Source: a virus (taxonomy: Duplodnaviria > Heunggongvirae > Uroviricota > Caudoviricetes). From it: a DNA stretch of 36,125 bases. Location: IMG/VR virus record IMGVR_UViG_2651869781_000013; one strand, given 5' to 3'. The notes under the pieces are model-generated. The model saw only the letters and a list, made by a program, of their open reading frames with translations, had not been told where the DNA came from and did not search any database. Made by a program: the position numbers and the translations under genes. The stretch's first letter is position 1. Each line of letters opens with the position of its first letter. This document shows positions 10,145 to 36,125 of this stretch, in pieces.

Positions 10145-10711
10145 TCAGGGGGATTCATTGATCTTATTTGCCGGAAATTTTCTATAAATGGTAGAAACGC
10201 CTACATCAAAAATCAGTGCAATACGCTGTCTTGATTCTCCGGCCTCGAGTAAACGCCCAATCTGTGCCCACTGTTCGGTGGTCAACTTAGGACGGCGTCC
10301 ACCTACTCTGCCTTTGGCACGAGCTGCAGCCAGCCCTGCCCTGGTACGTTCAACTATCAGTTCGCGTTCCATTTCAGCCAGGGCACCCATGACATGAAAA
10401 AAGAAACGGCCCATTGGGGTACTGGTATCAATACTGTCAGTCAGGCTTCTGAAATTCACACCACGCTGGCGCAACTCTTCTATCAGCGTAACAAGATGTC
10501 GCATACTGCGCCCCAACCTGTCCAGCTTCCAGACAACCAGCGTGTCTCCTGCCGATAGTGTCCTGAGTAGTTTTTTCAGCCCCGGTCTGTCGGACTTAGT
10601 GCCACTGATTTTGTCCTCAAAAATCCGCTCACATCCCGCGCAGTTCAGTGCATTACGTTGCAAATCGGTGTTCTGGTCATTTGTTGACACGCGTACATAG
10701 CCAATAAGCAT
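10145..10711 (-). CDS. serine DNA invertase (Gin/Hin/Pin/Cin family)
   Basis: 188 aa from ATG 10711: MLIGYVRVSTNDQNTDLQ...DTLVVWKLDRLGRS...C-terminal HTH; closely resembles recalled Mu Gin; RBS GGGGGA. Confidence 0.9.
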   Translation of the reverse strand: MLIGYVRVSTNDQNTDLQRNALNCAGCERIFEDKISGTKSDRPGLKKLLRTLSAGDTLVVWKLDRLGRSMRHLVTLIEELRQRGVNFRSLTDSIDTSTPMGRFFFHVMGALAEMERELIVERTRAGLAAARAKGRVGGRRPKLTTEQWAQIGRLLEAGESRQRIALIFDVGVSTIYRKFPANKINESP

Positions 10712-10767
10712 GATCATCCCCCTGAATAAAAACCGGAGATGATGCCAGTTAGCTGTTACCTCTGCAT

Positions 10768-11138: not shown

Positions 11139-11582
11139 ATGGAAATGGTTTATAGCGCCTCAAATAATAGTTTTTTCGCTAAAAATGATGTGGCGAAATA
11201 TGAACAGACCGGATGGGAACTTGCTGATATTGTCGAAGTGACATATGACACTTACCTGGAATTTATTGAAGACAGAACGTTGCAAGGGAAAGTACGCATC
11301 GCGGGTGATGATGGCCTTCCCGCCTGGGGGGAAATTCCACCGCCAACTCATGAGGAACAAATTGCCGCAGCCGAACTGGAAAAGCAGCAATTGATTAATC
11401 AGGTCAACGAATACATATACAGTAAGCAATGGCCTGGTAAAGCAGCGATTGGTCGCCTGAAAGGTGAGGAACTGGCGCAATATAATTTGTGGCTGGATTA
11501 TCTGGACGCACTGGAACTGGTTGATACCTCCAGTGCTCCAGATATTGAATGGCCTACGCCTCCGGCAGTTCAGGCCAGATGA
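11139..11582 (+). CDS. alternative tail fibre assembly protein (Tfa, U'-like)
   Basis: 147 aa, ATG right after the cassette stop (TAATATG); C-terminus APDIEWP resembles the active Tfa C-terminus APDVIWP. Confidence 0.75.
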   Translation: MEMVYSASNNSFFAKNDVAKYEQTGWELADIVEVTYDTYLEFIEDRTLQGKVRIAGDDGLPAWGEIPPPTHEEQIAAAELEKQQLINQVNEYIYSKQWPGKAAIGRLKGEELAQYNLWLDYLDALELVDTSSAPDIEWPTPPAVQAR

Positions 11583-12165
11583 CATCCGGCGCGGTGCTCG
11601 TATCTGTTGCCGTCACCGCGTCAATGTAATCAAGCACGGCGTTAAGCCGGGTGGTTTCTGCCTGCGTCAGCTTCCGCCCGGCCTGTAATTTCAGCTGAAT
11701 CAGACTGATGGAAGCCATTGCAGCATCAATCAGTGACTGGCGCTGTGCTTCTGCCGCTTCTACTGCGGCGCTATGCTGTGCCTCAGTATCTGTCACCCAT
11801 TTCTCACCATCCCATTCATCGTATGGAGTTAACGGGGCGATAGTGGTTGTATTTTCAGGATATTCGCCAATTTCGGTGATGGTGATTTCATCGCCGTTTT
11901 CAGTGTTGTAAACAGTTTCGCCACGATGGTCAGCAACGTATTCCCAACTGGTTAAATCAGCCTTGCGGCAGATTGCGAAACCTTCTTTTTTGCTGCCCGG
12001 CGCATCAACGCAGGAATTAGCTGGAACGCCAGCGCCAACCGGCAGATATTCAACGGATGAACCAATATATTCACGCGTTTCGCCATTGTAGTTGTAAACG
12101 GTAATAAATCCAGCCTCAGTGGCAAAACCGTTTTCATCCAAAGTGATTTTTTTTGTGGTCATCAT
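11554..12165 (-). CDS. G: tail fibre assembly protein (gpG-like Tfa), active orientation
   Basis: 203 aa, ATG overlapping the H stop (ATGA); convergent with and overlapping the alternative tfa by 29 nt. Confidence 0.8.
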   Translation of the reverse strand: MMTTKKITLDENGFATEAGFITVYNYNGETREYIGSSVEYLPVGAGVPANSCVDAPGSKKEGFAICRKADLTSWEYVADHRGETVYNTENGDEITITEIGEYPENTTTIAPLTPYDEWDGEKWVTDTEAQHSAAVEAAEAQRQSLIDAAMASISLIQLKLQAGRKLTQAETTRLNAVLDYIDAVTATDTSTAPDVIWPELPEA

Positions 12166-22067: not shown

Positions 22068-23834
22068 ATGAACACCACACTGACACCCGCAGATCTCGAT
22101 CCCCGTCGGCAGGCCATGCTGCTGTACTTTCAGGGATACCGCGTCGCCCGCATTGCTGAAATGCTGGGAGAGAAAGTTGCAACCGTTCACAGCTGGAAAA
22201 AACGCGACAAGTGGGGTGACTATGGGCCGCTGGATCAGATGCAGCTCACCACCGCCGCACGCTACTGCCAGCTCATTATGAAGGAGCACAAAGAAGGGAA
22301 AGATTTCAAAGAGATTGACCTGCTGGCGCGCCAGTCTGAACGCCACGCGCGGATCGGCAAGTTTAACAATGGCGGCAACGAAGCCGACTTAAACCCTAAC
22401 GTCGCCAACCGTAACAAAGGCCCGCGCCGTCAGCCGGAAAAGAACGTTTTCACCGATGAACAGATTGAGAAGCTGGAAGAAATCTTCCATTCCTCCATGT
22501 TCAACTACCAGCGCCACTGGTGGGAAGCCGGAAAAACCAACCGCATCCGCAACCTGCTGAAGTCACGCCAGATCGGCGCGACCTTCTATTTTGCCCGTGA
22601 AGCCCTGATTGACGCCCTGCTAACCGGGCGTAACCAGATTTTCCTTTCCGCCAGCAAGGCTCAGGCCCACGTCTTTAAGCAGTACATCATCGACTTCGCC
22701 AAAGAAGTGGAGGTGGAGCTGAAAGGCGATCCGATGGTGCTTCCTAACGGGTCCACGCTTTACTTCCTCGGCACCAATGCCCGCACTGCCCAGAGTTATC
22801 ACGGCAACCTGTATCTGGATGAATATTTCTGGATACCGAAATTCCAGGAGCTGCGCAAAGTGGCTTCCGGTATGGCTATTCACAAGAAATGGCGACAAAC
22901 CTATTTTTCCACGCCATCCAGCCTGACTCATAGTGCTTATCCGTTCTGGTCCGGTGCGCTGTTCAACCGTGGGCGCAACAAAGCCGATAAGGTGGACATC
23001 GACCTGTCCCACAGCAATCTTGCCCCCGGCCAGCTGTGCGCCGACGGGCAATACCGCCAGATAGTCACCGTGGAAGATGCGGTGCGCAGCGGCTGTAACC
23101 TGTTCGACCTTGACCAGTTGCGCATGGAGTACAGCCCGGACGAATACCAGAACCTGCTAATGTGCGAGTTTGTTGACGATCTCGCGTCCGTGTTTCCGCT
23201 CAGCGAGCTGCAGGCGTGCATGGTGGACAGTTGGGAAGTCTGGACCGACTTTCATGCTCTGGCCCTGCGCCCATTTGGCTGGCGCGAAGTGTGGATCGGT
23301 TATGACCCGGCAAAAGGTACGCAGAACGGCGACAGCGCCGGATGCGTGGTGGTGGCACCGCCAGCCGTGCCAGGCGGTAAGTTTCGCATTCTTGAGCGTC
23401 ACCAGTGGCGCGGGATGGACTTCCGTGCCCAGGCGGACGCAATCAAAAAACTGACCGAGCAGTACAACGTGACCTACATCGGCATCGACTCAACCGGCGT
23501 TGGTCACGGGGTTTACGAGAACGTGAAAGCGTTCTTTCCTGCCGTCCGGGAGTTTGTCTACAACCCCAACGTTAAAAACGCCCTGGTACTCAAGGCCTAC
23601 GACATTATCAGCCACCGCCGTCTGGAGTTTGACGCCGGACACACCGACATAGCGCAGTCATTCATGGCAATCCGTCGCTCCACCACCGCCAGTGGCAACC
23701 GCCCGACCTATGAAGCCAGCCGCAGCGAAGAAGCCAGCCACGCCGATCTGGCATGGGCAACGATGCACGCACTGTTTAACGAACCGCTGCAGGGCGAATC
23801 CGCCAATACCAGCAATATTGTGGAGATTTTTTGA
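22068..23834 (+). CDS. P: terminase large (ATPase) subunit gpP
   Basis: 588 aa; recalled similarity to P2 gpP. Confidence 0.9.
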   Translation: MNTTLTPADLDPRRQAMLLYFQGYRVARIAEMLGEKVATVHSWKKRDKWGDYGPLDQMQLTTAARYCQLIMKEHKEGKDFKEIDLLARQSERHARIGKFNNGGNEADLNPNVANRNKGPRRQPEKNVFTDEQIEKLEEIFHSSMFNYQRHWWEAGKTNRIRNLLKSRQIGATFYFAREALIDALLTGRNQIFLSASKAQAHVFKQYIIDFAKEVEVELKGDPMVLPNGSTLYFLGTNARTAQSYHGNLYLDEYFWIPKFQELRKVASGMAIHKKWRQTYFSTPSSLTHSAYPFWSGALFNRGRNKADKVDIDLSHSNLAPGQLCADGQYRQIVTVEDAVRSGCNLFDLDQLRMEYSPDEYQNLLMCEFVDDLASVFPLSELQACMVDSWEVWTDFHALALRPFGWREVWIGYDPAKGTQNGDSAGCVVVAPPAVPGGKFRILERHQWRGMDFRAQADAIKKLTEQYNVTYIGIDSTGVGHGVYENVKAFFPAVREFVYNPNVKNALVLKAYDIISHRRLEFDAGHTDIAQSFMAIRRSTTASGNRPTYEASRSEEASHADLAWATMHALFNEPLQGESANTSNIVEIF

Positions 23835-24868
23835 TGGGAAAGAGTAAGAAAAACCGCGCAGCGGCGATGAATCAGATCCAGCATAAAAGCCAGACTTCAG
23901 CCGAAGCATTCAGCTTCGGCGATCCCGTTCCTGTTCTGGACCGTCGCGAACTGCTGGACTATGTGGAATGCGTACAGATGGACCGCTGGTATGAGCCGCC
24001 TGTGAGTTTCGACGGCCTGGCGCGAACATTCCGCGCCGCCGTACACCACAGTTCACCGATTGCAGTAAAGTGCAACATTCTGACCAGCACCTATATCCCT
24101 CACCCGCTGCTCAGCCAGCAGGCTTTTTCACGTTTTGTGCAGGACTATCTGGTATTTGGTAACGCCTACCTGGAGAAACGCACGAACCGCTTCGGTGAAG
24201 TTATCGCCCTTGAACCTGCGCTGGCAAAATACACCCGACGCGGGTTAGATCTGGATACCTACTGGTTTGTGCAATACGGCATGACTACGCAGCCGTATCA
24301 TTTCACGAAAGGCAGCATCTTTCATCTGATGGAACCGGATATCAACCAAGAGATCTACGGCCTGCCCGGTTATCTTTCTGCCATTCCGTCAGCCCTGCTC
24401 AACGAGTCCGCCACGTTGTTCCGCCGTAAGTATTACATCAACGGCAGCCATGCAGGCTTCATCATGTACATGACCGATGCCGCGCAGAATCAGGAGGATG
24501 TGAACAACCTCCGCAACGCGATGAAAAGCGCCAAAGGTCCAGGCAACTTCCGCAACCTGTTTATGTACTCACCTAACGGCAAAAAAGACGGGCTTCAGAT
24601 CATCCCATTGTCAGAAGTCGCGGCGAAGGATGAATTTCTTAACATCAAGAACGTGAGTCGGGATGACATGATGGCAGCGCACCGCGTACCGCCGCAAATG
24701 ATGGGGATTATGCCGAATAATGTTGGGGGGTTTGGGGATGTCGAAAAGGCGAGTCATGTATTTGTTCGTAACGAGTTAATTCCATTACAAAAAAGGCTAA
24801 TTGAATTAAATGAATGGCTTAATGACGAAATTATTCGTTTTGACGAATATAAATTAGGCAATACTTGA
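23834..24868 (+). CDS. Q: portal protein gpQ
   Basis: 344 aa from ATG 23834 overlapping the P stop, RBS GGAG; ORF-track start at 23831 is TTG. Confidence 0.85.
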   Translation: MGKSKKNRAAAMNQIQHKSQTSAEAFSFGDPVPVLDRRELLDYVECVQMDRWYEPPVSFDGLARTFRAAVHHSSPIAVKCNILTSTYIPHPLLSQQAFSRFVQDYLVFGNAYLEKRTNRFGEVIALEPALAKYTRRGLDLDTYWFVQYGMTTQPYHFTKGSIFHLMEPDINQEIYGLPGYLSAIPSALLNESATLFRRKYYINGSHAGFIMYMTDAAQNQEDVNNLRNAMKSAKGPGNFRNLFMYSPNGKKDGLQIIPLSEVAAKDEFLNIKNVSRDDMMAAHRVPPQMMGIMPNNVGGFGDVEKASHVFVRNELIPLQKRLIELNEWLNDEIIRFDEYKLGNT

Positions 24869-24877
24869 TTAAAGCCT

Positions 24878-24911
24878 GTTTAAACTGGCTGTCGGAACAG
24901 CCAGTTTAAAC
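24878..24911. terminator. palindrome, probable bidirectional terminator between Q and the cargo operon
   Basis: Perfect 14-bp arms GTTTAAACTGGCTG / CAGCCAGTTTAAAC around a 6-nt loop; overlaps the stop codon of ORF 24906..25754. Confidence 0.5.
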
Positions 24912-25754
24912 ACCGGCACCAATGAAATCGCCATATGAATCTTCTTCAAGGCTGATGTATTCTACCCTCCATTGATCCATCCGCCTCAATGCATACAGGG
25001 AGAAATGAGTATCAGCAACAGCTATGCACGTATTCAATTCTATAAGTTCTGAATGCCCCAAGGTTGGATCACCATAAAACTTATAAAACAAAGCCTTTAG
25101 ATCAGAACATGTTTGTTCAGCCGCTCTTCTGGCATCGGGGCCACCTTCAGTTGCATCATAAACAACATTGATAGAAAGCTCATATGGTATGCCTTCCTCA
25201 AGATCGTTAAATCTTTCTTCGCCCAAATCGAAAAAAACTCCGATCAAATGCTCTGCGTTTGTGGCGATAATATCCGCAACTTCTTTTTCGAAAATAAACT
25301 TTTTATCCTCGTCGTAAGCCCGCAAGCGCTCTTCAAACGAGTTAGGAAACGCTGGACGACCATACTTAGCAGCTAACCATTGCTTAAGAGCTTGTTTCTC
25401 TTCTGTGCTAATGGAGAATGCTGGATCGTTTTCCTCACAACAGAAAGCTTCTTTAGGAAAGATGACTTTCCTTTCATGCCGGAGCTCTACTGCATTCTTC
25501 TTCGCACTTTCTGGGTTTTCAAAACATAGATCGAGTATTCTCGGATGCTTAGCTCTTTTCATCCTGCTTGACCCCTTTTTCAAGGGGCCAAACATCAGTT
25601 CCACGTTTTTTTCTGAATTACTCTGTAAATCACAATCATGCGTTATAACTACAACTTTATGGTTCGTTTCATCAGGCTGCAGAATTCCAAGTGAAACGGC
25701 ATCATCATGTTTAAGTACATGCCCCTGACGCCATGATGTTCCTCGTACCAACAT
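24906..25754 (-). CDS. cargo operon gene 3, hypothetical protein
   Basis: 282 aa, ATG 9 nt after the gene 2 stop; AT-rich; no Walker A, HEXXH or other motif recognised. Confidence 0.55.
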   Translation of the reverse strand: MLVRGTSWRQGHVLKHDDAVSLGILQPDETNHKVVVITHDCDLQSNSEKNVELMFGPLKKGSSRMKRAKHPRILDLCFENPESAKKNAVELRHERKVIFPKEAFCCEENDPAFSISTEEKQALKQWLAAKYGRPAFPNSFEERLRAYDEDKKFIFEKEVADIIATNAEHLIGVFFDLGEERFNDLEEGIPYELSINVVYDATEGGPDARRAAEQTCSDLKALFYKFYGDPTLGHSELIELNTCIAVADTHFSLYALRRMDQWRVEYISLEEDSYGDFIGAGV

Positions 25755-25763
25755 AAATGTGAT

Positions 25764-26426
25764 TTATTCCTCTACCGTTCCAGGAATTGAAATAGATGAC
25801 TTCCAATCATCTGTCGGTTTCGCCTTGCTTGCTAAGTAATTGGCCGATTCAGCAGCAGCATTCATCGCTTTAGCTTCATCAATCAATACCTGAACTGCCC
25901 TATTCCAATCCTCACCTTCTTTTACTACGTCCATTAATGACTTACCATTAAATGCTTTCATTTTCACCAATAGCTTCGCATCATGGAGTCCAGCTTTGGA
26001 AAAAGAGTCAGCGACATTACTAAGGTTGATAATGAATTGCACTTTTGAAGCATCATCAGGCTGGTTCTCCCCTGACAACCATTTATAGAGAGCCTGCCGA
26101 GTTATCCCCAAATCCTTTGCCAGTTCTGACATTGATGGAGACAGCACTTCTCGAATATTAGCTAAATGTTGGGCAACATTCCTGACATCAACCTCAGGAG
26201 AAATTGCAGGCGTGTACGTTGATTCTATGGAATCAAATGCAAACTGAACCCTTGGCTGAACATACTGACGCCATTGCTTATAAGCATTTACAGGGTATGA
26301 AGCCCCCGTACCAACTAATAGTAAAGATGCGGCGACAGCAACAACACCTGATACACATGAGCTTGACTGCAAATTTGGAGAATATCGATCTACAGAGCCT
26401 ATGCTTCCGGTGGGAATTGCATACAT
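25764..26426 (-). CDS. cargo operon gene 2, HTH (XRE-type) protein with N-terminal hydrophobic segment
   Basis: 220 aa from ATG 26426 with RBS GGAGGT, 20 nt after the gene 1 stop; HTH SMSELAKDLGITRQALYKWLSGE; hydrophobic stretch VSGVVAVAASLLLVGTGA. Confidence 0.6.
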   Translation of the reverse strand: MYAIPTGSIGSVDRYSPNLQSSSCVSGVVAVAASLLLVGTGASYPVNAYKQWRQYVQPRVQFAFDSIESTYTPAISPEVDVRNVAQHLANIREVLSPSMSELAKDLGITRQALYKWLSGENQPDDASKVQFIINLSNVADSFSKAGLHDAKLLVKMKAFNGKSLMDVVKEGEDWNRAVQVLIDEAKAMNAAAESANYLASKAKPTDDWKSSISIPGTVEE

Positions 26427-26445
26427 TTTAGTCACCTCCGTTGTT

Positions 26446-27255
26446 TCAGTGCCATTTAGTACGGGCAAAATCTGAAACCATGCCTTCAAATGCTTCTTTA
26501 ACTTTACTATGCAACGAAAGAATCTGTTTTTCAATTAACTGCAAATCAGTTGACATGTTGCCTTCAACATAATGATCTGTATCAATTATTGCGTGCATAC
26601 GATGCTCTGTGTTACTAAATCTCGGCAACGGCAGTAAACCATTAGGAATCATATCTGGCGGAAAACCTAGCTGACCATTCATCTTATGTATTCGTGAAAC
26701 CATAAATCCATTAGGGATCAATGGCTCAACACGTGTCTGATATACGGACTCTTGTATAGACTGTATTGGCGTCCATCCGAAATCAACACCATGAAGTTCC
26801 TTTACAAGATACTGCTCAATTGTTTCGCTTTTCTCAGGAAACACAGCATCCAAATATCGAAGCCCAATCCGACTTAACAGCGATGGCTTAGCAAATTCTA
26901 GAACTTTGCTCAGACCAAGTATCAATGACGAGATGAAAGATACATGGTTATCATAATATGTTGTATGGAACGTAATGAAATCGTTGCCTAAAACAAAACC
27001 AGATCTTCTATCTGCATCAATCATCAACCAACTTGTCACAGGCTCAAATGAATGTACCGGTGGCTCATTGGGGTTTTTTATTTCAAATTTCAACTGAGTT
27101 GTATTGGAAACCTCAAATAAAGGAAATCCCTCAACTCTTAGCGCATCTTGTATGTCTGGAACATACTTACTCATTGCAGCTATTGGAGTAAACTTTACCT
27201 GTACCAATGCATAGTAAACGGGCGCATTGGACATACGTTCGCTGTTAGTACTCAT
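26446..27255 (-). CDS. cargo operon gene 1, hypothetical protein (possibly TIGR04255-like, unverified)
   Basis: 269 aa, ATG with strong RBS AGGAGG; AT-rich; N-terminus MSNAPVYYALVQVKF resembles a recalled family signature; no catalytic motif recognised. Confidence 0.6.
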   Translation of the reverse strand: MSTNSERMSNAPVYYALVQVKFTPIAAMSKYVPDIQDALRVEGFPLFEVSNTTQLKFEIKNPNEPPVHSFEPVTSWLMIDADRRSGFVLGNDFITFHTTYYDNHVSFISSLILGLSKVLEFAKPSLLSRIGLRYLDAVFPEKSETIEQYLVKELHGVDFGWTPIQSIQESVYQTRVEPLIPNGFMVSRIHKMNGQLGFPPDMIPNGLLPLPRFSNTEHRMHAIIDTDHYVEGNMSTDLQLIEKQILSLHSKVKEAFEGMVSDFARTKWH

Positions 27256-27395
27256 GCCGCCCTCCTTGAAATTGTTTCATCTCATATCTCTTTATCTTAC
27301 TAACTGTAGTTTACACATAGGTTGACACTTTCTCCATCATTAAGTTCACTATGACATCAATAGCCAAAACTCTTACGTAATCGCTTCGGCGCGCG

Positions 27396-27414
27396 CTCGT
27401 ATCCCCGCCACGCC
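27396..27414. other. probable cos site (cohesive end)
   Basis: Minus strand reads GGCGTGGCGGGGATACGAG; first 13 nt match my recollection of the 186/P2 19-nt cohesive ends; GC-rich block in a 360-bp non-coding interval. Confidence 0.45.
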
Positions 27415-27617
27415 TGCCCGCTTTATGTAGTGGTTTTCATGCACCTGCATGATCTACGCAAAAGCCCGCCAGTTCTGGCAGGCCTTAGCAAAAACGATCC
27501 TCAAACGATCATGCGATCTCATGCGGCATAGACATGCACCACAGAGCTAACGCCTCGCACAGCTCGTTGTTCAACCTTGCTGACGCCAGAAGCAAGTTCA
27601 GACGCCAGCAACGTTTC

Positions 27618-27851
27618 TTAATGCAGCCAGCTGTCGTCTTCCCACACCTTCTGCATAATTTTCATCACTTGTTTTCTTTCTTCGTCCAGTTGAAGTCCGG
27701 TCAGTTCCACACCGTTAGAGCTACCTTTGCGGATACGAATTACCGTTTTGGGATACAGGGGGCGCAGATTGCGGTAAAGCTCGGATTCAAGGGCGTCCAG
27801 TGTAGACTGGCTAACCTTCTGCTCTTTATCGATCATTATTTCAATGCGCAT
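27618..27851 (-). CDS. DinI-family protein (Tum C-terminal-like)
   Basis: 77 aa from ATG 27851 (MRIEIMIDKEQKVSQSTLDALESEL...WEDDSWL) with RBS GAGGTG; resembles recalled DinI. Confidence 0.7.
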   Translation of the reverse strand: MRIEIMIDKEQKVSQSTLDALESELYRNLRPLYPKTVIRIRKGSSNGVELTGLQLDEERKQVMKIMQKVWEDDSWLH

Positions 27852-27861
27852 AAAAGTCACC

Positions 27862-28050
27862 TCAGCTGATGACATCCATTGAGCGGTTGTATTCGTGGGT
27901 TCTGATTTTTGCCATGAGTTCATCTGTCAGTTCAGAAACCCACTGCAGGGCCAGCCCCTTCTCTTCATCACTACACTCACTAGCCGCTACAAGCTTAAGA
28001 AAAAAATCAATGCGCTGGAGCTTCAAAGACTCCAAAAAATAGTCCTGCAT
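27862..28050 (-). CDS. small protein, possible Tum-like antirepressor N-terminal module
   Basis: 62 aa, strong RBS AGGAGG; first gene after a LexA-boxed promoter; assignment by position only. Confidence 0.45.
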   Translation of the reverse strand: MQDYFLESLKLQRIDFFLKLVAASECSDEEKGLALQWVSELTDELMAKIRTHEYNRSMDVIS

Positions 28051-28202: not shown

Positions 28203-30617
28203 TTAATACAGGTTTCGCCACTTATCATCTTCCTGCAAACGCTGGTTCCGATAGAAGATACGCAGGCCTGCTCCTGACGGAATACTGCCGCCGCGAAGCA
28301 GTAAATCGACCTCTTTCTCGCTGCCATCAAATCCCCTGGACTTCAGTTCATACACGAGCTGCTGTCGCTGATGATCTGTAATTCGCTGTTTGTAGTCTTT
28401 ACGCCGTTTCGGTTTTACAAGGCGTAACCTTGCTGCCAGTTCCCGGCGCTCTTTTTTGCTCATACTGTGCAGGTAATCGTGCAACTCCTTGTCATCCATG
28501 CGGGTGATATCCGTTCTGGTATCTCCATCAGCTGATTTGTCTTTCCCTTGTTGGTACAAATTTTCAGCAAGGGGACAGTTATTGCCACGAGTCCAAGGGG
28601 CGCAAGCGCCCTGGTCGGCTGCCGCCTCCTGAACGTCAACGGCTTTACGAACCATTTTCCACTTCACTGCATGAGTGCAGATCTTGCCCTCTGCAATGGG
28701 TGACCAGATGCCATAAATACGAATGCCGTGATCGCCATAGGCGGTCGGCTCTTCGTTGATTTCATAAGCGGTTCTGATGAGGTGATATTTACGGGGAACC
28801 AGTACGCCGCCCTGCTTCATGATGTAGGTGGCAAAACAACCAGCATCAGCAGCAGCCAGAATGGCATCAAGACGCGGGTTATCCAGTACCGGCGCACCTG
28901 CTTTTTTGTCACCCTGTTGCCTTGCCGCCTGACCAGCCAGCAAGCGAAGTTCACGGTAAGCCTGACGCCCCGGAATACCAAAGAAGCGGAATTGCTGAAC
29001 ACGATGCAGAGACGCCCAGGCATTCACGTATTCAGCGTTATCACGCAGAGATTTACCCGTTTCCTTGCTGATCTCGCCAGCCAGACCACGACCGTCAATG
29101 TTCTTACTGATATATTTCGCGATGTAGCTTGTCGGCGTTCCTTTGCGCGGGTTAATCAACTCAGACTTAAAGCGCGGCCCAGTGTTATTGCCCAGCTCCT
29201 CGCGGTCTTCACGAATGGCAAACTTACGCAGTAATGCAGTGATGGCACGGCGGTCTTTTTTGCGCATGAAACACAACAGGTGCCAGTGAACTGTGCCATC
29301 ATGATGCGGCTCAGCCACCCGCACGCCATACCAGCGCAACCCGGCTTTGTGCATCGCCTTACGAAATGCAGCAAACATGCCGACCAGATAATCGCTGCTT
29401 TGTCTTACCGTCGCGTTTGTCCAGGTCGGGTTTGGTCTGCCGTTATTTAGCGTGGAATGGAAACGCGACGGACAGGTGATAGTGTAGAAAACGGCGCAGT
29501 CACCGCGCATTTCCGCGATAAGCTCCAGACCTTTAACACAGGCCATCATCTCATTGCGGCGATGCGCAGGGTTGCTGCTGCTGGCGTTTACCACATCCTC
29601 CATGTCCAGCGTGTCGCCGTCTTCGTTCACCAGTTCATGAGAACGGAAAAACTCCAGCGACTTACGGCGCTGCTCACGTTTATGCAACACGGCTTCATAG
29701 CTGACATAGGGAGATGCTTTTTTGCTGACAAGGCAGACAGCACGCAACTGCTCTTCCCGCCATTCGCAACGCATCTTCCATAATTTCCGATACCACCAGT
29801 CGGCGCACAACATACGCGCCAGCGAACCCGGAATGAGTTCATAGGGCACGGGTTTACGGCGGTTTCTTTTCCGACGGAGTTGCTCAAACGCAGGCGGGAT
29901 TACATCCAGACGCAGGGTTTTCGCTGCCACCCTTTCCCATGTATTGCGGATTTCTTCTGGCTTAACGTCATCGGTGGCATACAAATCGCCACAAGCGGCA
30001 TCAAGGCACATACTCATATGCGCAGCTACCAGGGTGGACAGGCGTTTCACCTGATCCTGACTCATTTCAGGCAGGAACAGCAGGCCGTCCAGCCCTTCAT
30101 GGCTTGCCATAAAGCGAAAAGATGCAGATAGCTGACTGTCGCGTACATGCTCCAGTCGTTCCAGACATGGCTTAATCGTCTCACGTAAATAGCGGGAATA
30201 AGCCTTTGGCCTGCCAAGGCTGCTGAAGTATTCAATACGTTGCATCAGCGGCTTGCTGATATGGGAAGGCTGGGCGTTGACGTCCGCCAGAATGACCATA
30301 TCCGGATTAAAACGCTGCTGCTCATGCACCAGCTTTGCCCGACTAATGAGCTTATCCTGTTCCATTTCGCGCTGGACAGGATCACGGGATTCATTAAAGA
30401 AATAACGCTCCCAGACCTGATCACTCAGCGCCTCACGGCGCAGCTGTTCCTGCTCGTTATCGGCAGCGTACAGAGTGATCAGGTTTGAAAGCGTAGAAAC
30501 CGGCGCAACTTCCACCGGGTCCAGATAAGGGTTAATGGCCTTTTTCGGGCTGTTCCATGAGAACGATGCGGCAGCTTCGTTAAAGCCGCAGCAGTTGTTC
30601 ATATCGGCATGACTCAT
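28203..30617 (-). CDS. A: replication initiation protein gpA (rolling-circle nickase family)
   Basis: 804 aa; contains [12 protein letters not shown]-type motif; positioned as in P2/186. Confidence 0.85.
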
Positions 30618-31471
30618 GCACGTACTCCGTACACGGCAGAACTATCCACGCCACGCGAATAATCAAATCCCACCCAGCAGCGCGGCCCGGAAACAGCAAT
30701 GATTTCTGTTGCTGATTTACCCTCGCCAGCTGCCACACCGATGCTGCGTTTTGCCTTGATGTAGTGGTGAGTAAAATTGCGATACAGCGAACGGATCAGG
30801 GATGTGTCACTGTTAGAAACAATGACCGGATGTCCTTCTGATGACCGATGTTCAAGAACAGATGCCAGGTGATACTGGTCATCTTCAGTGAAGCCGTCAG
30901 TGTGATAGCCGGAAAACGTACCGTCATACGGCGGATCGCAATACACCACATCCCCCGCCTTCAACATCGCCAGCGTTTCATCAAAGCTGGCGCAGATAAA
31001 CGTTGCTCGCTGGGCCTTTTCTGCAAATGCGCGAATTTCTTTTTCAGGGAAATACGGATTTTTATAATTACCGTAGGGAATGTTGAAATGCCCGCTCTTG
31101 TTATAGCGACATAAACCACGGTAACCGTGACGATTGAGATACAGGAAATATACCGCTTTCATGAAATCAGTAATTTCAGTGGAGTAATTAAACTCCTGCC
31201 TTATGTTGTAATAAGCCACCTCCCTGTTTGCGATCTCAAATAAAACTCTGGCGCGAGATATAAACGATTCACAATCAGCGGCAACCTTTTTATAGAGGTT
31301 GATTAAATCAGGATTAATATCCGCAACCAGATAGCTGGGGTAATCCGTCTCCATCATCACAGCACAGGAACCCGCGAAAGGTTCAACCAGTCGCGGGCCA
31401 GCAGGAAGGTGTTTTTTCAGTTCGGACATAATGGCGGTTTTATTTCCCGCCCATTTCAGGATGGTGCTCAT
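30614..31471 (-). CDS. DNA N6-adenine methyltransferase (Dam-like)
   Basis: 285 aa from ATG 31471; motifs LKWAGNK (SAM binding) and DPPY; stop overlaps the A start. Confidence 0.8.
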
Positions 31472-31695
31472 ACAGCACCTCCGTTGTAATGTTTGCCTTT
31501 CAGCTCTGCGATTTCCTGGCAGGTAATGCAAAGCTGCACTCCCGGAATGGCGCGGCGTCGTGCTGGCGGAATTGGCGCTTCACATTCAATACAAAGCACG
31601 CGAGACACGCCCGGTGTTTTGGCACGGGCAGCACGAATATGGCGCTGGCGTTCTTCTTCAACGCGCTGCTGTACGAGATCCATTGCATCAGCCAT
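31468..31695 (-). CDS. TraR/DksA-family C4 zinc-finger protein
   Basis: 75 aa with CIECEAPIPPARRRAIPGVQLCITCQ (CxxC-N17-CxxC). Confidence 0.7.
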   Translation of the reverse strand: MADAMDLVQQRVEEERQRHIRAARAKTPGVSRVLCIECEAPIPPARRRAIPGVQLCITCQEIAELKGKHYNGGAV

Positions 31696-34174: not shown

Positions 34175-34360
34175 TTTTTGCTTTTATATCTGCGCCTAAT
34201 ATAACAATGAGCCGCAGGCTAACCGCAAAAGTCACATACTCACATAGCAAAAAATAGCCAACTTCATTATGGCTTCAGTGAGATGTATGGTCGCAAGATT
34301 TCATACATTGACACTGGTTATACATACAGTAAAAATGCTCTCTATTGGAGGGCATTTTTT

Positions 34361-35392
34361 ATGGCAGTACGAAAACTCACCACAGGAAAATGGCTTTGCG
34401 AATGTTACCCCGCCGGACGTAGTGGGCGTCGTGTGCGTAAACAATTCGCCACCAAAGGCGAAGCACTGGCTTTTGAGCGTCACACGATGGAAGAAACCGA
34501 AGCAAAGCCCTGGCTGGGCGAATCAGTAGATCGTCGAACCCTGAAAGACGTGGTTGAGCTATGGTTCAAACTACATGGTAAATCTCTGACTGCTGGGCAG
34601 CATGTCTATGACAAATTGCTGCTGATGGTTGACGCTCTGGGCAATCCCCTTGCAACCGATCTCACATCTAAAATGTTTGCCCATTATCGAGATAAACGAC
34701 TGACAGGTGAGATCTACTTCAGCGAGAAATGGAAGAAAGGGGCCAGCCCGGTCACCATTAACCTGGAGCAAAGCTATCTAAGTAGTGTTTTTAGCGAACT
34801 ATCCCGCCTGGGCGAATGGTCGTATCCAAACCCACTGGAGAACATGCGAAAATTCACCATCGCAGAAAAAGAGATGGCATGGCTTACCCATGAGCAGATT
34901 GTTGAACTGCTGGATGATTGCAAACGTCAGGACCCAATTCTGGCACTGGTAGTCAAGATATGCTTAAGCACAGGCGCACGCTGGCGAGAAGCAATAAACC
35001 TTACCCGATCACAGGTGACCAAATACCGAATTACCTTTGTAAGAACGAAGGGGAAGAAAAACAGAAGCATCCCTATCAGTAAAGAGCTTTATGAAGAGAT
35101 CATGGCGCTTGATGGGTTCAATTTCTTCACAGACTGCTATTTTCAATTTTTATCCGTGATGGAAAAAACGTCTATCGTGCTCCCTCGCGGTCAACTTACA
35201 CACGTTCTGCGTCATACGTTTGCGGCGCATTTCATGATGTCGGGTGGAAACATCCTTGCTTTGCAAAAAATCCTCGGACATCACGACATAAAAATGACTA
35301 TGCGTTATGCTCATCTATCACCTGATCACTTAGAGACAGCTCTTCGTTTCAATCCACTAGCAACTTTGGATGTTACTAAATCAGATTCTTAA
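34361..35392 (+). CDS. int: tyrosine integrase (P2/186 family)
   Basis: 343 aa from ATG 34361; C-terminal motifs R...HxLRHT...Y (LTHVLRHTFA ... MTMRYAHL); adjacent to attL. Confidence 0.85.
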   Translation: MAVRKLTTGKWLCECYPAGRSGRRVRKQFATKGEALAFERHTMEETEAKPWLGESVDRRTLKDVVELWFKLHGKSLTAGQHVYDKLLLMVDALGNPLATDLTSKMFAHYRDKRLTGEIYFSEKWKKGASPVTINLEQSYLSSVFSELSRLGEWSYPNPLENMRKFTIAEKEMAWLTHEQIVELLDDCKRQDPILALVVKICLSTGARWREAINLTRSQVTKYRITFVRTKGKKNRSIPISKELYEEIMALDGFNFFTDCYFQFLSVMEKTSIVLPRGQLTHVLRHTFAAHFMMSGGNILALQKILGHHDIKMTMRYAHLSPDHLETALRFNPLATLDVTKSDS

Positions 35393-35402
35393 AGGTTCAA
35401 GC

Positions 35403-36125
35403 ATGGTTAAGTTTTTGTTTCAATTCCCAATATTCGACTTCTCCTTAACATTTGATATTATCGAGACGTTAATCACTCATAGCGAATCATCAATCGCTAA
35501 GGGTATAGCAGAATATAAAGACAAAGGACCTGAAGAATATATAATTGAAATATCTCCGGAAGATGGTGTATATCAGTCAATTGATCATTACATGGGACTC
35601 ACCAGCTCATCGCTAGATCTCGATGAAATGTTTTTAGAATACTACCCAAGTATTATCCGCAGGTCAGTATTCTTAACTATATTCGGAATTTTTGAGCACG
35701 AAATAGAAAAATTCTGTAACAACTTTGCTAATAGACATCATTCTCCTATAAATGTTTCAGATCTCAAAGGAAGTGGATTTGAGAGGAGTCATCTATTTAT
35801 CAAAAAAATGATAGGGATGAAGTCAACATCCCACTATTCGAATATCAAAAAAATAACAAAATTAAGAAACAGTTGTGCGCATAATGATGCAAAATACTTA
35901 GAAAACGATGGGCAAAATATTAAAAGCATTATTGAACTTATAGAAAAATATCCTGATTTTTTTAAAAAAGATGGAAAACAGGTCCTATTTATGGAGGGCT
36001 CGTTAAGCATGATCTTGAACTCATTCAAAGAGTATCTTTCTGATGTTGAAAGAGCCTTAGATGAATTCGAAAAACAAAGCACTAGTGGCGACAAAGTGGC
36101 GGCAGCGGTTGGCATTACCCCGTAA
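35403..36125 (+). CDS. hypothetical AT-rich cargo protein with possible HEPN Rx4H motif
   Basis: 240 aa from ATG 35403 (alternative ATG 35370 inside the int 3' end); motif KLRNSCAHN; last about 13 codons cross the attL core. Confidence 0.45.
   Translation: MVKFLFQFPIFDFSLTFDIIETLITHSESSIAKGIAEYKDKGPEEYIIEISPEDGVYQSIDHYMGLTSSSLDLDEMFLEYYPSIIRRSVFLTIFGIFEHEIEKFCNNFANRHHSPINVSDLKGSGFERSHLFIKKMIGMKSTSHYSNIKKITKLRNSCAHNDAKYLENDGQNIKSIIELIEKYPDFFKKDGKQVLFMEGSLSMILNSFKEYLSDVERALDEFEKQSTSGDKVAAAVGITP
36086..36107. repeat. attL core (prophage left junction)
   Basis: TGGCGACAAAGTGGCGGCAGCG, 21/22 identical to 2834-2855. Confidence 0.7.

Follow-up and report, generated by a model that had tools for sequence, protein, structure and literature searches.

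What do three AT-rich genes do between the cohesive end (cos) and the portal gene of a temperate phage? The question is raised by the IMG/VR virus record IMGVR_UViG_2651869781_000013, a stretch of 36,125 nucleotides (hereafter the window) with the gene content of an almost complete P2/186-like prophage. The three genes, which we call g1, g2 and g3, are located between cos and portal gene Q of this 186-like prophage. They encode a TIGR04255-family protein, an Xre-type helix-turn-helix (HTH) protein and a protein that belongs to no known sequence family. A preliminary description of the window had proposed that they form an undescribed defence or exclusion operon. We find that the trio is a rare, horizontally mobile and self-contained cassette, carried as accessory cargo at the cos end of the prophage, and that the same three genes recur in an invariant order across many bacterial phyla. 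To the proposal that they act as a tripartite, toxin–antitoxin (TA)-like abortive-infection module, for anti-phage defence or exclusion, we give an even chance.

The three genes are co-directional on the minus strand, with the lengths and positions that the preliminary description gave them (Table 1). Identical Escherichia coli prophages in RefSeq carry the same three annotated coding sequences, under the names 'TIGR04255 family protein' (g1), 'transcriptional regulator' (g2) and 'hypothetical protein' (g3). For g2, the mechanical open reading frame (ORF) begins at an upstream TTG and has 256 residues. The g1–g2 spacer is 19 nt, one less than first reported, and the g2–g3 spacer is 9 nt as reported; the ribosome-binding-site-like sequences AGGAGG, GGAGGT and GAGGA named in the same account are all found at the trio. 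Its AT-richness was also correctly seen: the GC content is 0.38–0.44 over positions 24800–27400, against 0.53–0.61 in the late genes; the trio as a whole is at about 0.40 and its flanks are at 0.53–0.58. Because each gene has hundreds of length-conserved homologues, and because the intergenic spacing is kept throughout the family (medians 19 and 15 nt), we take g1, g2 and g3 to be genuine genes rather than chance ORFs. The conserved intergenic distances are consistent with one operon, and the compact unit first read from a single sequence is borne out by the order and the spacers of its relatives.

How widely is this unit distributed? We used an alignment of g3 to scan one genome from each of 185,579 species, and recovered 87 relatives. 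In the 80 loci examined and six others, drawn from genomes, metagenomes and E. coli, the genes are found as g1-g2-g3, in one order and on one strand, without a single departure (86 of 86). The hosts recovered by the scan belong to the Gamma-, Beta- and Alphaproteobacteria, Nitrospirae, Chlamydiae, Verrucomicrobia, Acidobacteria, Chloroflexota, Actinobacteria, Omnitrophota and Gemmatimonadota. IMG/VR contributes 50 viral contigs with the trio; all three genes are present in 47, and the remaining 3 are cut by contig ends. No conserved fourth gene was found among the neighbourhoods surveyed. In two metagenome-assembled genomes from Chlamydiae the trio is split between g2 and g3, by 4.3 kb in one (L062 5687–10001) and by 2.3 kb in the other (L082 7681–10001); an insertion element or an additional gene may account for the extra DNA.

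The plasmid-borne trios extend this pattern to distant relatives. Seven plasmid loci, from Klebsiella pneumoniae, Pseudomonas putida, Meiothermus, Mesorhizobium, Vibrio, Chroococcidiopsis and Rhizobium, represent the Deinococcota, the Cyanobacteria and the Alpha- and Gammaproteobacteria. The gene order is kept in all seven, though their g1 homologues are only 22–34% identical. In these loci a TIGR04255 gene is followed by one for a protein of ~190–230 residues, often annotated as HTH, and then by one for a protein of ~275–305 residues. Hidden Markov models of the close families recognise the plasmid g1 and g2 in 7/7 trios and g3 in 6/7. Since even distant homologues still have both partners, a TIGR04255 gene in effect marks a three-gene cassette. 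This TIGR04255-marked, invariant trio is reported in none of the papers we searched. Our literature search returned no paper text on TIGR04255, CHP04255, IPR026349 or the RefSeq accessions of the trio, with the exception of one row in a DefensePredictor sheet (below).

The cassette occupies slots in more than one kind of mobile element. About 35 of the 50 viral contigs have the trio directly beside a P2-type portal gene, including phages in which Q is only 59% identical, and the cos–Q slot of many P2-type phages holds trio alleles that are 39% to 100% identical. In a Klebsiella oxytoca lambdoid prophage (L091 8522–10840), a trio of ~60% identity lies in the nin region, between replication gene P and NinE/RusA/Q. 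Two unrelated families of temperate phage therefore hold the same cassette in their accessory slots. Further phage slots are beside P2 GpU/GpD, beside NinG/Q, and beside lambda-type terminase and portal genes.

Other loci place the trio in varied company. One (L087 4392–7347) belongs to an island with serine recombinases at its borders. There the trio is preceded by an Abi_2 (AbiD/F-like) gene and a gene for an HTH-Peptidase_M78 protein, and followed by one for a sigma54-activator-type AAA protein, itself flanked by three unknown genes; this locus may be a small defence island. Another trio is carried in a small integrase island. In Arenimonas-like contigs the neighbours are BrxR, an SNF2/NOV_C helicase and NYN. 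On a conjugative plasmid of P. putida the trio sits at a Tn7-like element and adjoins a RES toxin; in Meiothermus it is beside an integrase, PIN-HTH, a DNA methyltransferase and DUF262; in Mesorhizobium it is near VapBC; and in Shewanella it lies amid ordinary chromosomal genes.

The limits of the cassette can be placed by comparison with viral contig L125. The two phages have near-identical backbones (Q 95%, P 99% and A 98% identical), and their trios are only 57, 54 and 61% identical for g1, g2 and g3, respectively. In a sliding alignment, DNA identity is ~100% down to position 27415 and ~0.6 from 27414, the first base of cos, so that the cassette's outer edge falls on the very base at which cos begins. 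Towards Q, identity is regained only within the last ~45 codons of the gene (~24730–24790) and is at least 0.9 only below ~24730; the C-terminus of Q is exchanged along with the cargo. From the break at 27414 and the recovery at ~24730–24790, we conclude that the exchangeable unit measures ~2.6–2.7 kb and occupies the very end of the linear phage genome.

The assignment of cos at 27396–27414, first made as probable in the preliminary description, is plausible on sequence grounds. The 19-nt element GGCGTGGCGGGGATACGAG is the same as the cos-type sequence in the P2-like clone from E. coli E1114 (Rousset et al. 2022, PMC9122126), and it shares 14 of its 19 positions with P2 cos. The interval between A and cos holds two small genes, one for a DinI-like protein (phrog_189, 3e-30) and one for a 62-residue phrog_698 protein. 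They are kept in related prophages irrespective of the trio allele, and in this phage the variable cargo is therefore confined to the Q side of cos.

The cassette is also rare. The whole segment occurs in 18 of 5,426 complete E. coli genomes, and 1,276 match its conserved edges; one more E. coli genome holds a trio allele of ~60% identity. At high identity, the trio is found neither in P2 nor in 186, nor in any of the 50,697 deposited phage records. It is present in ~0.3–0.4% of P2-like loci. The expectation that the genes are variable cos–Q cargo, and not core genes of most P2-like phages, is upheld by the E. coli count and by a published one (69 of 18,150 P2 loci; below). Placement with respect to A, cos and Q, presence in a minority of loci and replacement by a swapped allele are all found, as for variable cargo of the P2 A–cos–Q hotspot.

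These data bear on the simplest alternative, that the trio serves phage propagation at the cos end, in packaging, injection or early establishment. Such a role would suit the coincidence of the cassette edge with cos and the trio's position by a P2-type portal gene in ~35/50 viral contigs, over a wide span of identity. We nevertheless regard it as highly improbable, given how few P2-like loci have the trio, its absence from P2, 186 and the deposited phage records, and its presence on plasmids, on a transposon, on chromosomes and in other slots of other phages.

Has the locus been seen before? It has. The trio is P2-hotspot system #59 in Table S5B of Rousset et al. 2022 (Cell Host Microbe, PMC9122126), where it is counted in 69 of 18,150 P2 loci, and the entry gives the sequences, the Pfam family HTH_31 and the remark '1 TM in protein 2'. 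System #59 and the trio of the window are the same three proteins bar a few substitutions, in the same A–cos–Q hotspot of E. coli P2-like prophages. The entry is an unnamed one in a catalogue, with no structural or comparative analysis and no mention of the trio outside P2 phages. To call the locus undescribed was therefore wrong as regards its listing and right as regards its function, which is not reported there. The trio is of a familiar kind, prophage-borne and TA-like candidate defence cargo of the P2 hotspot, at a locus already catalogued. None of its three protein families has been characterised, however, and no described system has such an architecture.

Neighbours in the same hotspot invite a comparison. 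Rst_3HP of E. coli E1114 is, like the trio, a set of three genes without clear domains, in the P2 hotspot and with the identical cos sequence alongside; it is annotated 'hp + hp + hp', and its activity against phage P1 has been validated (Rousset et al. 2022, PMC9122126). We compared the sequences in Table S2A by eye and reject identity of the two systems. The Rst_3HP proteins, which begin MGGETSAIQ..., MAKKLYFAT... and MKKVKWLKL..., are wholly different from g1–g3, and the first and second are longer than those of the trio. Among further systems of the P2 hotspot, three of eight were protective when cloned (PMC9122126). In the P4 hotspot the figure is six of eight unknown loci, from a 2026 study of P2 and P4 that tested unknown loci from P4 only (PMC13586616).

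Profile searches returned no match of all three proteins to characterised families and no PADLOC system. In PADLOC-DB v2.0.0, g1 and g3 match no family at E≤0.1, and g2 has only weak, HTH-level matches to RmrA and mad1 (E≥1e-3). Membership of a known defence system is rejected, as no PADLOC model was matched. The DefensePredictor paper offers an indirect signal: the 'neighbors' sheet of its Table S3 lists 'TIGR04255 family protein' at position 1 with a mean SHAP value of 1.62 (n=9), close to the values of AAA ATPase (1.43) and DEAD-box helicases (1.49) and higher than that of transposase (0.53). This is a hint that genes adjoining TIGR04255 look defensive to the predictor. The accessions of the trio were not found in those tables of the paper that we searched.

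What, then, are the three proteins? The preliminary description likened the N-terminus of g1 to TIGR04255, and rightly so. The protein matches NCBIfam TIGR04255 with 178.7 bits (cutoff 30; E 1.7e-52) over its full length, residues 7–269 aligning to model positions 1–252. The family is large and uniform, with 1,141 clusters at 50% identity (E≤1e-3) in a library of 1.84 billion proteins, nearly all of ~260 residues. In its predicted structure g1 folds as an alpha/beta sandwich, in which invariant arginine and aspartate residues form an enzyme-like cluster. Across close and distant trios P12, Y101, F107, G131, R133, L150, D225, D227 and F256 are invariant, and R40, R129, D136, E144, E169, R188 and D201 are nearly so. 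Several of the conserved residues, including R129, R133, D225 and D227, lie on predicted beta-strands. In the model, this residue pattern suggests an active site of the type that handles nucleotides or phosphate. The nearest known candidates are the guanido (arginine) kinases, McsB and the glutamine-synthetase-fold ligases, to which the sheet of the predicted model may be likened.

The second protein has both features that were first ascribed to it, a hydrophobic N-terminal segment and an XRE-type HTH. Its Pfam HTH_3 match, at residues 98–124, scores 23.6 bits, just above the gathering threshold of 23; the same model is matched by 18 of 23 diverse members of the g2 family (E≤0.05), and g2 matches the phrog_8 transcriptional regulator at 4e-15. 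Weak matches are to HigA-type (dnstrm_HI1420) and MqsA antitoxin models. The layout of g2 is a hydrophobic N-terminal stretch, the HTH, a C-terminal helical domain and a tail. Rich in alanine, glycine and valine, the N-terminal stretch terminates in a conserved GTG(S), and among 84 homologues 50 have it in strong and 22 in weak form, while 12 lack it. On these counts we reject the idea that a transmembrane helix is obligatory in g2. A DUF2384/MbcA-like toxin-binding domain is likewise unsupported, as the MbcA match has an E-value of 0.085 only and Pfam gives nothing.

In its close subfamily g2 ends in P[ST]xDW...SIPGxxE, and in 66 of 84 homologues the glutamate is the last residue or at most two residues from the end; this tail was not found in the distant (plasmid) trios. 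Encoded in the 25767–25800 region, it resembles tails that serve in docking, as degrons or in ligation. The third protein has a conserved terminal stretch of its own, DQWRxEYIS (residues 260–268), which is predicted with low confidence. The tails of g2 and g3 both look like docking peptides.

No motif was recognised in g3 by the preliminary description. That is true of its sequence, which has no match in Pfam, NCBIfam, PADLOC or the PDB sequences and whose one family match is the uncharacterised phrog_34320; it is not true of its predicted fold. The model of g3 comprises an SH3-like barrel of the MazF/CcdB type (approximately residues 10–110) and an alpha/beta C-terminal domain. Two independent methods return the MazF/Kid/CcdB/CptN fold for the barrel, and the best fold matches are all toxins. 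Three residues of g3, V36, C41 and R133, do not vary among the trios compared, close or distant; W8-x-Q10-G11 is kept in 6/6 distant trios with an annotated N-terminus, and D42 and R72 are kept in 6/7. The 'HDCD' motif of the close subfamily becomes [ST]-x-x-C-[DT] family-wide. A nucleotidyltransferase (MNT/Pol-beta) site in the C-terminal domain is rejected, as its three aspartates are invariant only in the close subfamily; because they are not conserved, this domain is probably a scaffold. Sequence and profile searches found no solved structure for any member of the trio families.

How might three such proteins work together? In the abortive-infection module that we favour, g3 would be the effector, a MazF/CcdB-type barrel with the invariant Cys41-Asp42 and with Arg72/Arg133, fused to a scaffold domain. 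The HTH protein g2 would repress the operon through its Xre-type domain and would keep the effector inactive through its N-terminal GTGS segment and its C-terminal tail; the N-terminal segment, hydrophobic in most members, might also anchor it to the membrane. The role proposed for g1 is that of a sensor or modifier; it would be enzyme-like, with a guanido-kinase/glutamine-synthetase-like sheet, and its invariant arginines and D225-x-D227 could carry out nucleotide or phosphate chemistry. Upon infection, g1 would release or activate the effector. The case for defence or exclusion is better grounded than it was, because of the cross-phylum synteny, the phage and plasmid hotspots, the toxin-type fold and the neighbour signal in DefensePredictor.

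Several observations weigh against this reading. The fold of g3 is the first concern: Foldseek E-values are only ~0.02 and the model is of moderate quality (predicted local distance difference test score 77, predicted TM-score 0.56). No Pfam family was matched by any of 20 g3-family members, even at E≤10. No sequence homology to MazF/PemK (PF02452) emerged, with an hhalign probability of 0.1% against MazF/Kid/EndoA and an empty PDB profile search, and the catalytic residues of MazF cannot be mapped onto g3. The link to MazF is therefore a resemblance of fold and not membership of a family. Moreover, the most enzyme-like of the three proteins is g1, and if it, rather than g3, were the toxic member, the proposed roles would be reversed. 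Regulation is a second concern. The leader between cos and g1 must house the cassette promoter, and it has no consensus sigma-70 match; no operator-like palindrome or inverted repeat is conserved in 12 homologous leaders upstream of g1. The third is genomic context. For 29 non-P2 genomic loci we surveyed, to the left and to the right, the two large ORFs closest to the trio and found heterogeneous flanks, with transposases, TniQ, ParA, two to three ResIII/SNF2 helicases and mostly ordinary genes, and we therefore make no claim of defence-island enrichment. Finally, system #59 is absent from the tables of cloned and tested systems of Rousset et al. (PMC9122126), and the P2 hotspot carries partition systems, the CDT toxin and virulence or maintenance genes as well as defence genes (PMC9122126).

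The last point, the non-defence cargo of the hotspot, is one of several that would suit a regulatory, lysogenic-conversion or counter-defence cassette, in which an HTH protein and two accessory enzymes alter the physiology or surface of the host or block a host defence, with no killing of infected cells. So would the predicted DNA binding of g2 and its probable membrane anchor in most members, the enzyme-like appearance of g1, and the unconserved aspartates of the g3 C-terminal domain, which leave no obvious conserved nuclease or nucleotidyltransferase site there. Yet the trio is found in hosts as different as Chlamydiae, Cyanobacteria, Deinococcota, Nitrospirae and enterics, and it has no link to a host pathway or conserved neighbour, contrary to what a host-specific function would lead one to expect; the toxin matches of g3 also point elsewhere. 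We think this account quite unlikely.

Could the trio be purely an addiction module? A three-component TA system of that type would act by post-segregational killing or stabilisation: its loss would kill the cell, and it would give no protection against other phages. The toxin-like fold of g3 and its HTH partner g2 would fit, as would residence at the edges of mobile elements and on large plasmids or integrative elements, often by TA pairs such as those of Mesorhizobium (VapBC), P. putida (RES) and Meiothermus (PIN-HTH). Against this, many TA modules of the same hotspots prove to be anti-phage, the fast exchange of trios among near-identical phages suits diversifying selection by competitors better, and an enzyme-like third component is unusual in a plain addiction module. 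Pure addiction is in our judgement unlikely.

If the trio is an abortive-infection module, it differs from those already described. The type II systems MazEF, Kid-Kis and CcdAB and the type III systems ToxIN, CptIN and AbiQ have no sequence or profile similarity to g3. Compared with MazF-type toxins, g3 is 2.5 times longer and has an extra domain and a conserved tail, and it has an invariant Cys-Asp in place of the Arg/Thr of MazF. The partner in the trio is a 220-residue HTH protein with a hydrophobic N-terminus, whereas the partners in MazEF- and ToxIN-type systems are MazE/AbrB, a ribbon-helix-helix protein or an RNA; and in the trio a third, enzyme-like gene is always present. HipBST, systems of the paaR-paaA-parE type and Xre-RES combine, as the trio does, an Xre-type regulator with an enzyme-like protein in a three-gene architecture. 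However, Pfam, NCBIfam and PADLOC gave no homology between their components and the trio, the HTH gene of the trio is in the middle, and the folds differ.

These differences leave room for a bolder proposal, that the trio represents a new three-component immune class, spread over many bacterial phyla. Here g1, as a guanido-kinase/glutamine-synthetase-fold enzyme, would phosphorylate, ligate or otherwise signal onto g2, an often membrane-tethered HTH adaptor with its ...SIPGxxE tail, and so unleash a Cys-dependent g3 effector with its MazF-type barrel, in a chemistry and wiring unlike those of described TA or defence systems. This is speculative, and we would be rather surprised to see it borne out.

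The remaining features of the window are collected in Table 1. The palindrome reported between Q and g3 is indeed perfect; it does not lie strictly between these convergent genes, as it overlaps the stop codon of g3 (24906–24908). It is probably a bidirectional terminator. Elsewhere in the prophage, a serine DNA invertase gene (190 residues; Resolvase and HTH_7, E 2e-53) adjoins a tail-fibre assembly gene (Caudo_TAP) in a stretch with a GC content of ~0.48; the pair is probably a Gin/Cin-type invertible switch of tail-fibre host range. A 251-residue ORF at the end of the window has no Pfam match and a GC content of 0.36, and it overlaps the end of the integrase gene. Lying at the attachment end of the prophage, it may be one more AT-rich gene of accessory or island type.

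Table 1. Positions of the trio, its boundaries and other features of the 36,125-nt window
Feature	Position	Strand	Remarks
Serine DNA invertase gene	10145-10717	-	
Tail-fibre assembly gene	11554-12165	-	
Terminase P	22068-23834	+	
Portal gene Q	23831-24868	+	
3' end of Q, inner cassette edge	24730-24868	+	within swapped segment; L125 sliding identity
Perfect inverted repeat	24877-24912		16-nt arms 24877-24892 and 24897-24912, 4-nt loop, 100% complementary; repeat search
g3	24906-25754	-	282 aa, in no known sequence family, putative effector
g2	25764-26426	-	Xre-type HTH protein, 220 aa from ATG
g1	26446-27255	-	TIGR04255-family protein, 269 aa
Leader between cos and g1 start	27256-27395	-	140 nt
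Probable 19-nt cos cohesive end	27414..27396	-	GGCGTGGCGGGGATACGAG
Two small genes between A and cos	27618-28050	-	
Replication gene A	28203-30617	-	
Dam methylase	30614-31531		
CII/CP76, 186-type CI repressor			also recognisable in prophage
Integrase	34283-35392		also recognisable in prophage
ORF at attachment end	35370-36125	+	251 aa

The trio lends itself to direct test, being a 2.5-kb E. coli cassette with natural limits, from cos to the Q terminator, and with its candidate residues named. If it proves to be anti-phage, this would be the first function for the TIGR04255 family and for its two unnamed partner families, in hosts as distant from one another as enterics, Cyanobacteria, Deinococcota and Chlamydiae. 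The repertoire of the P2 hotspot would gain a three-component system in which a MazF-fold effector with an invariant cysteine has, as third partner, an enzyme-like protein; this combination would be new among TA and abortive-infection systems.

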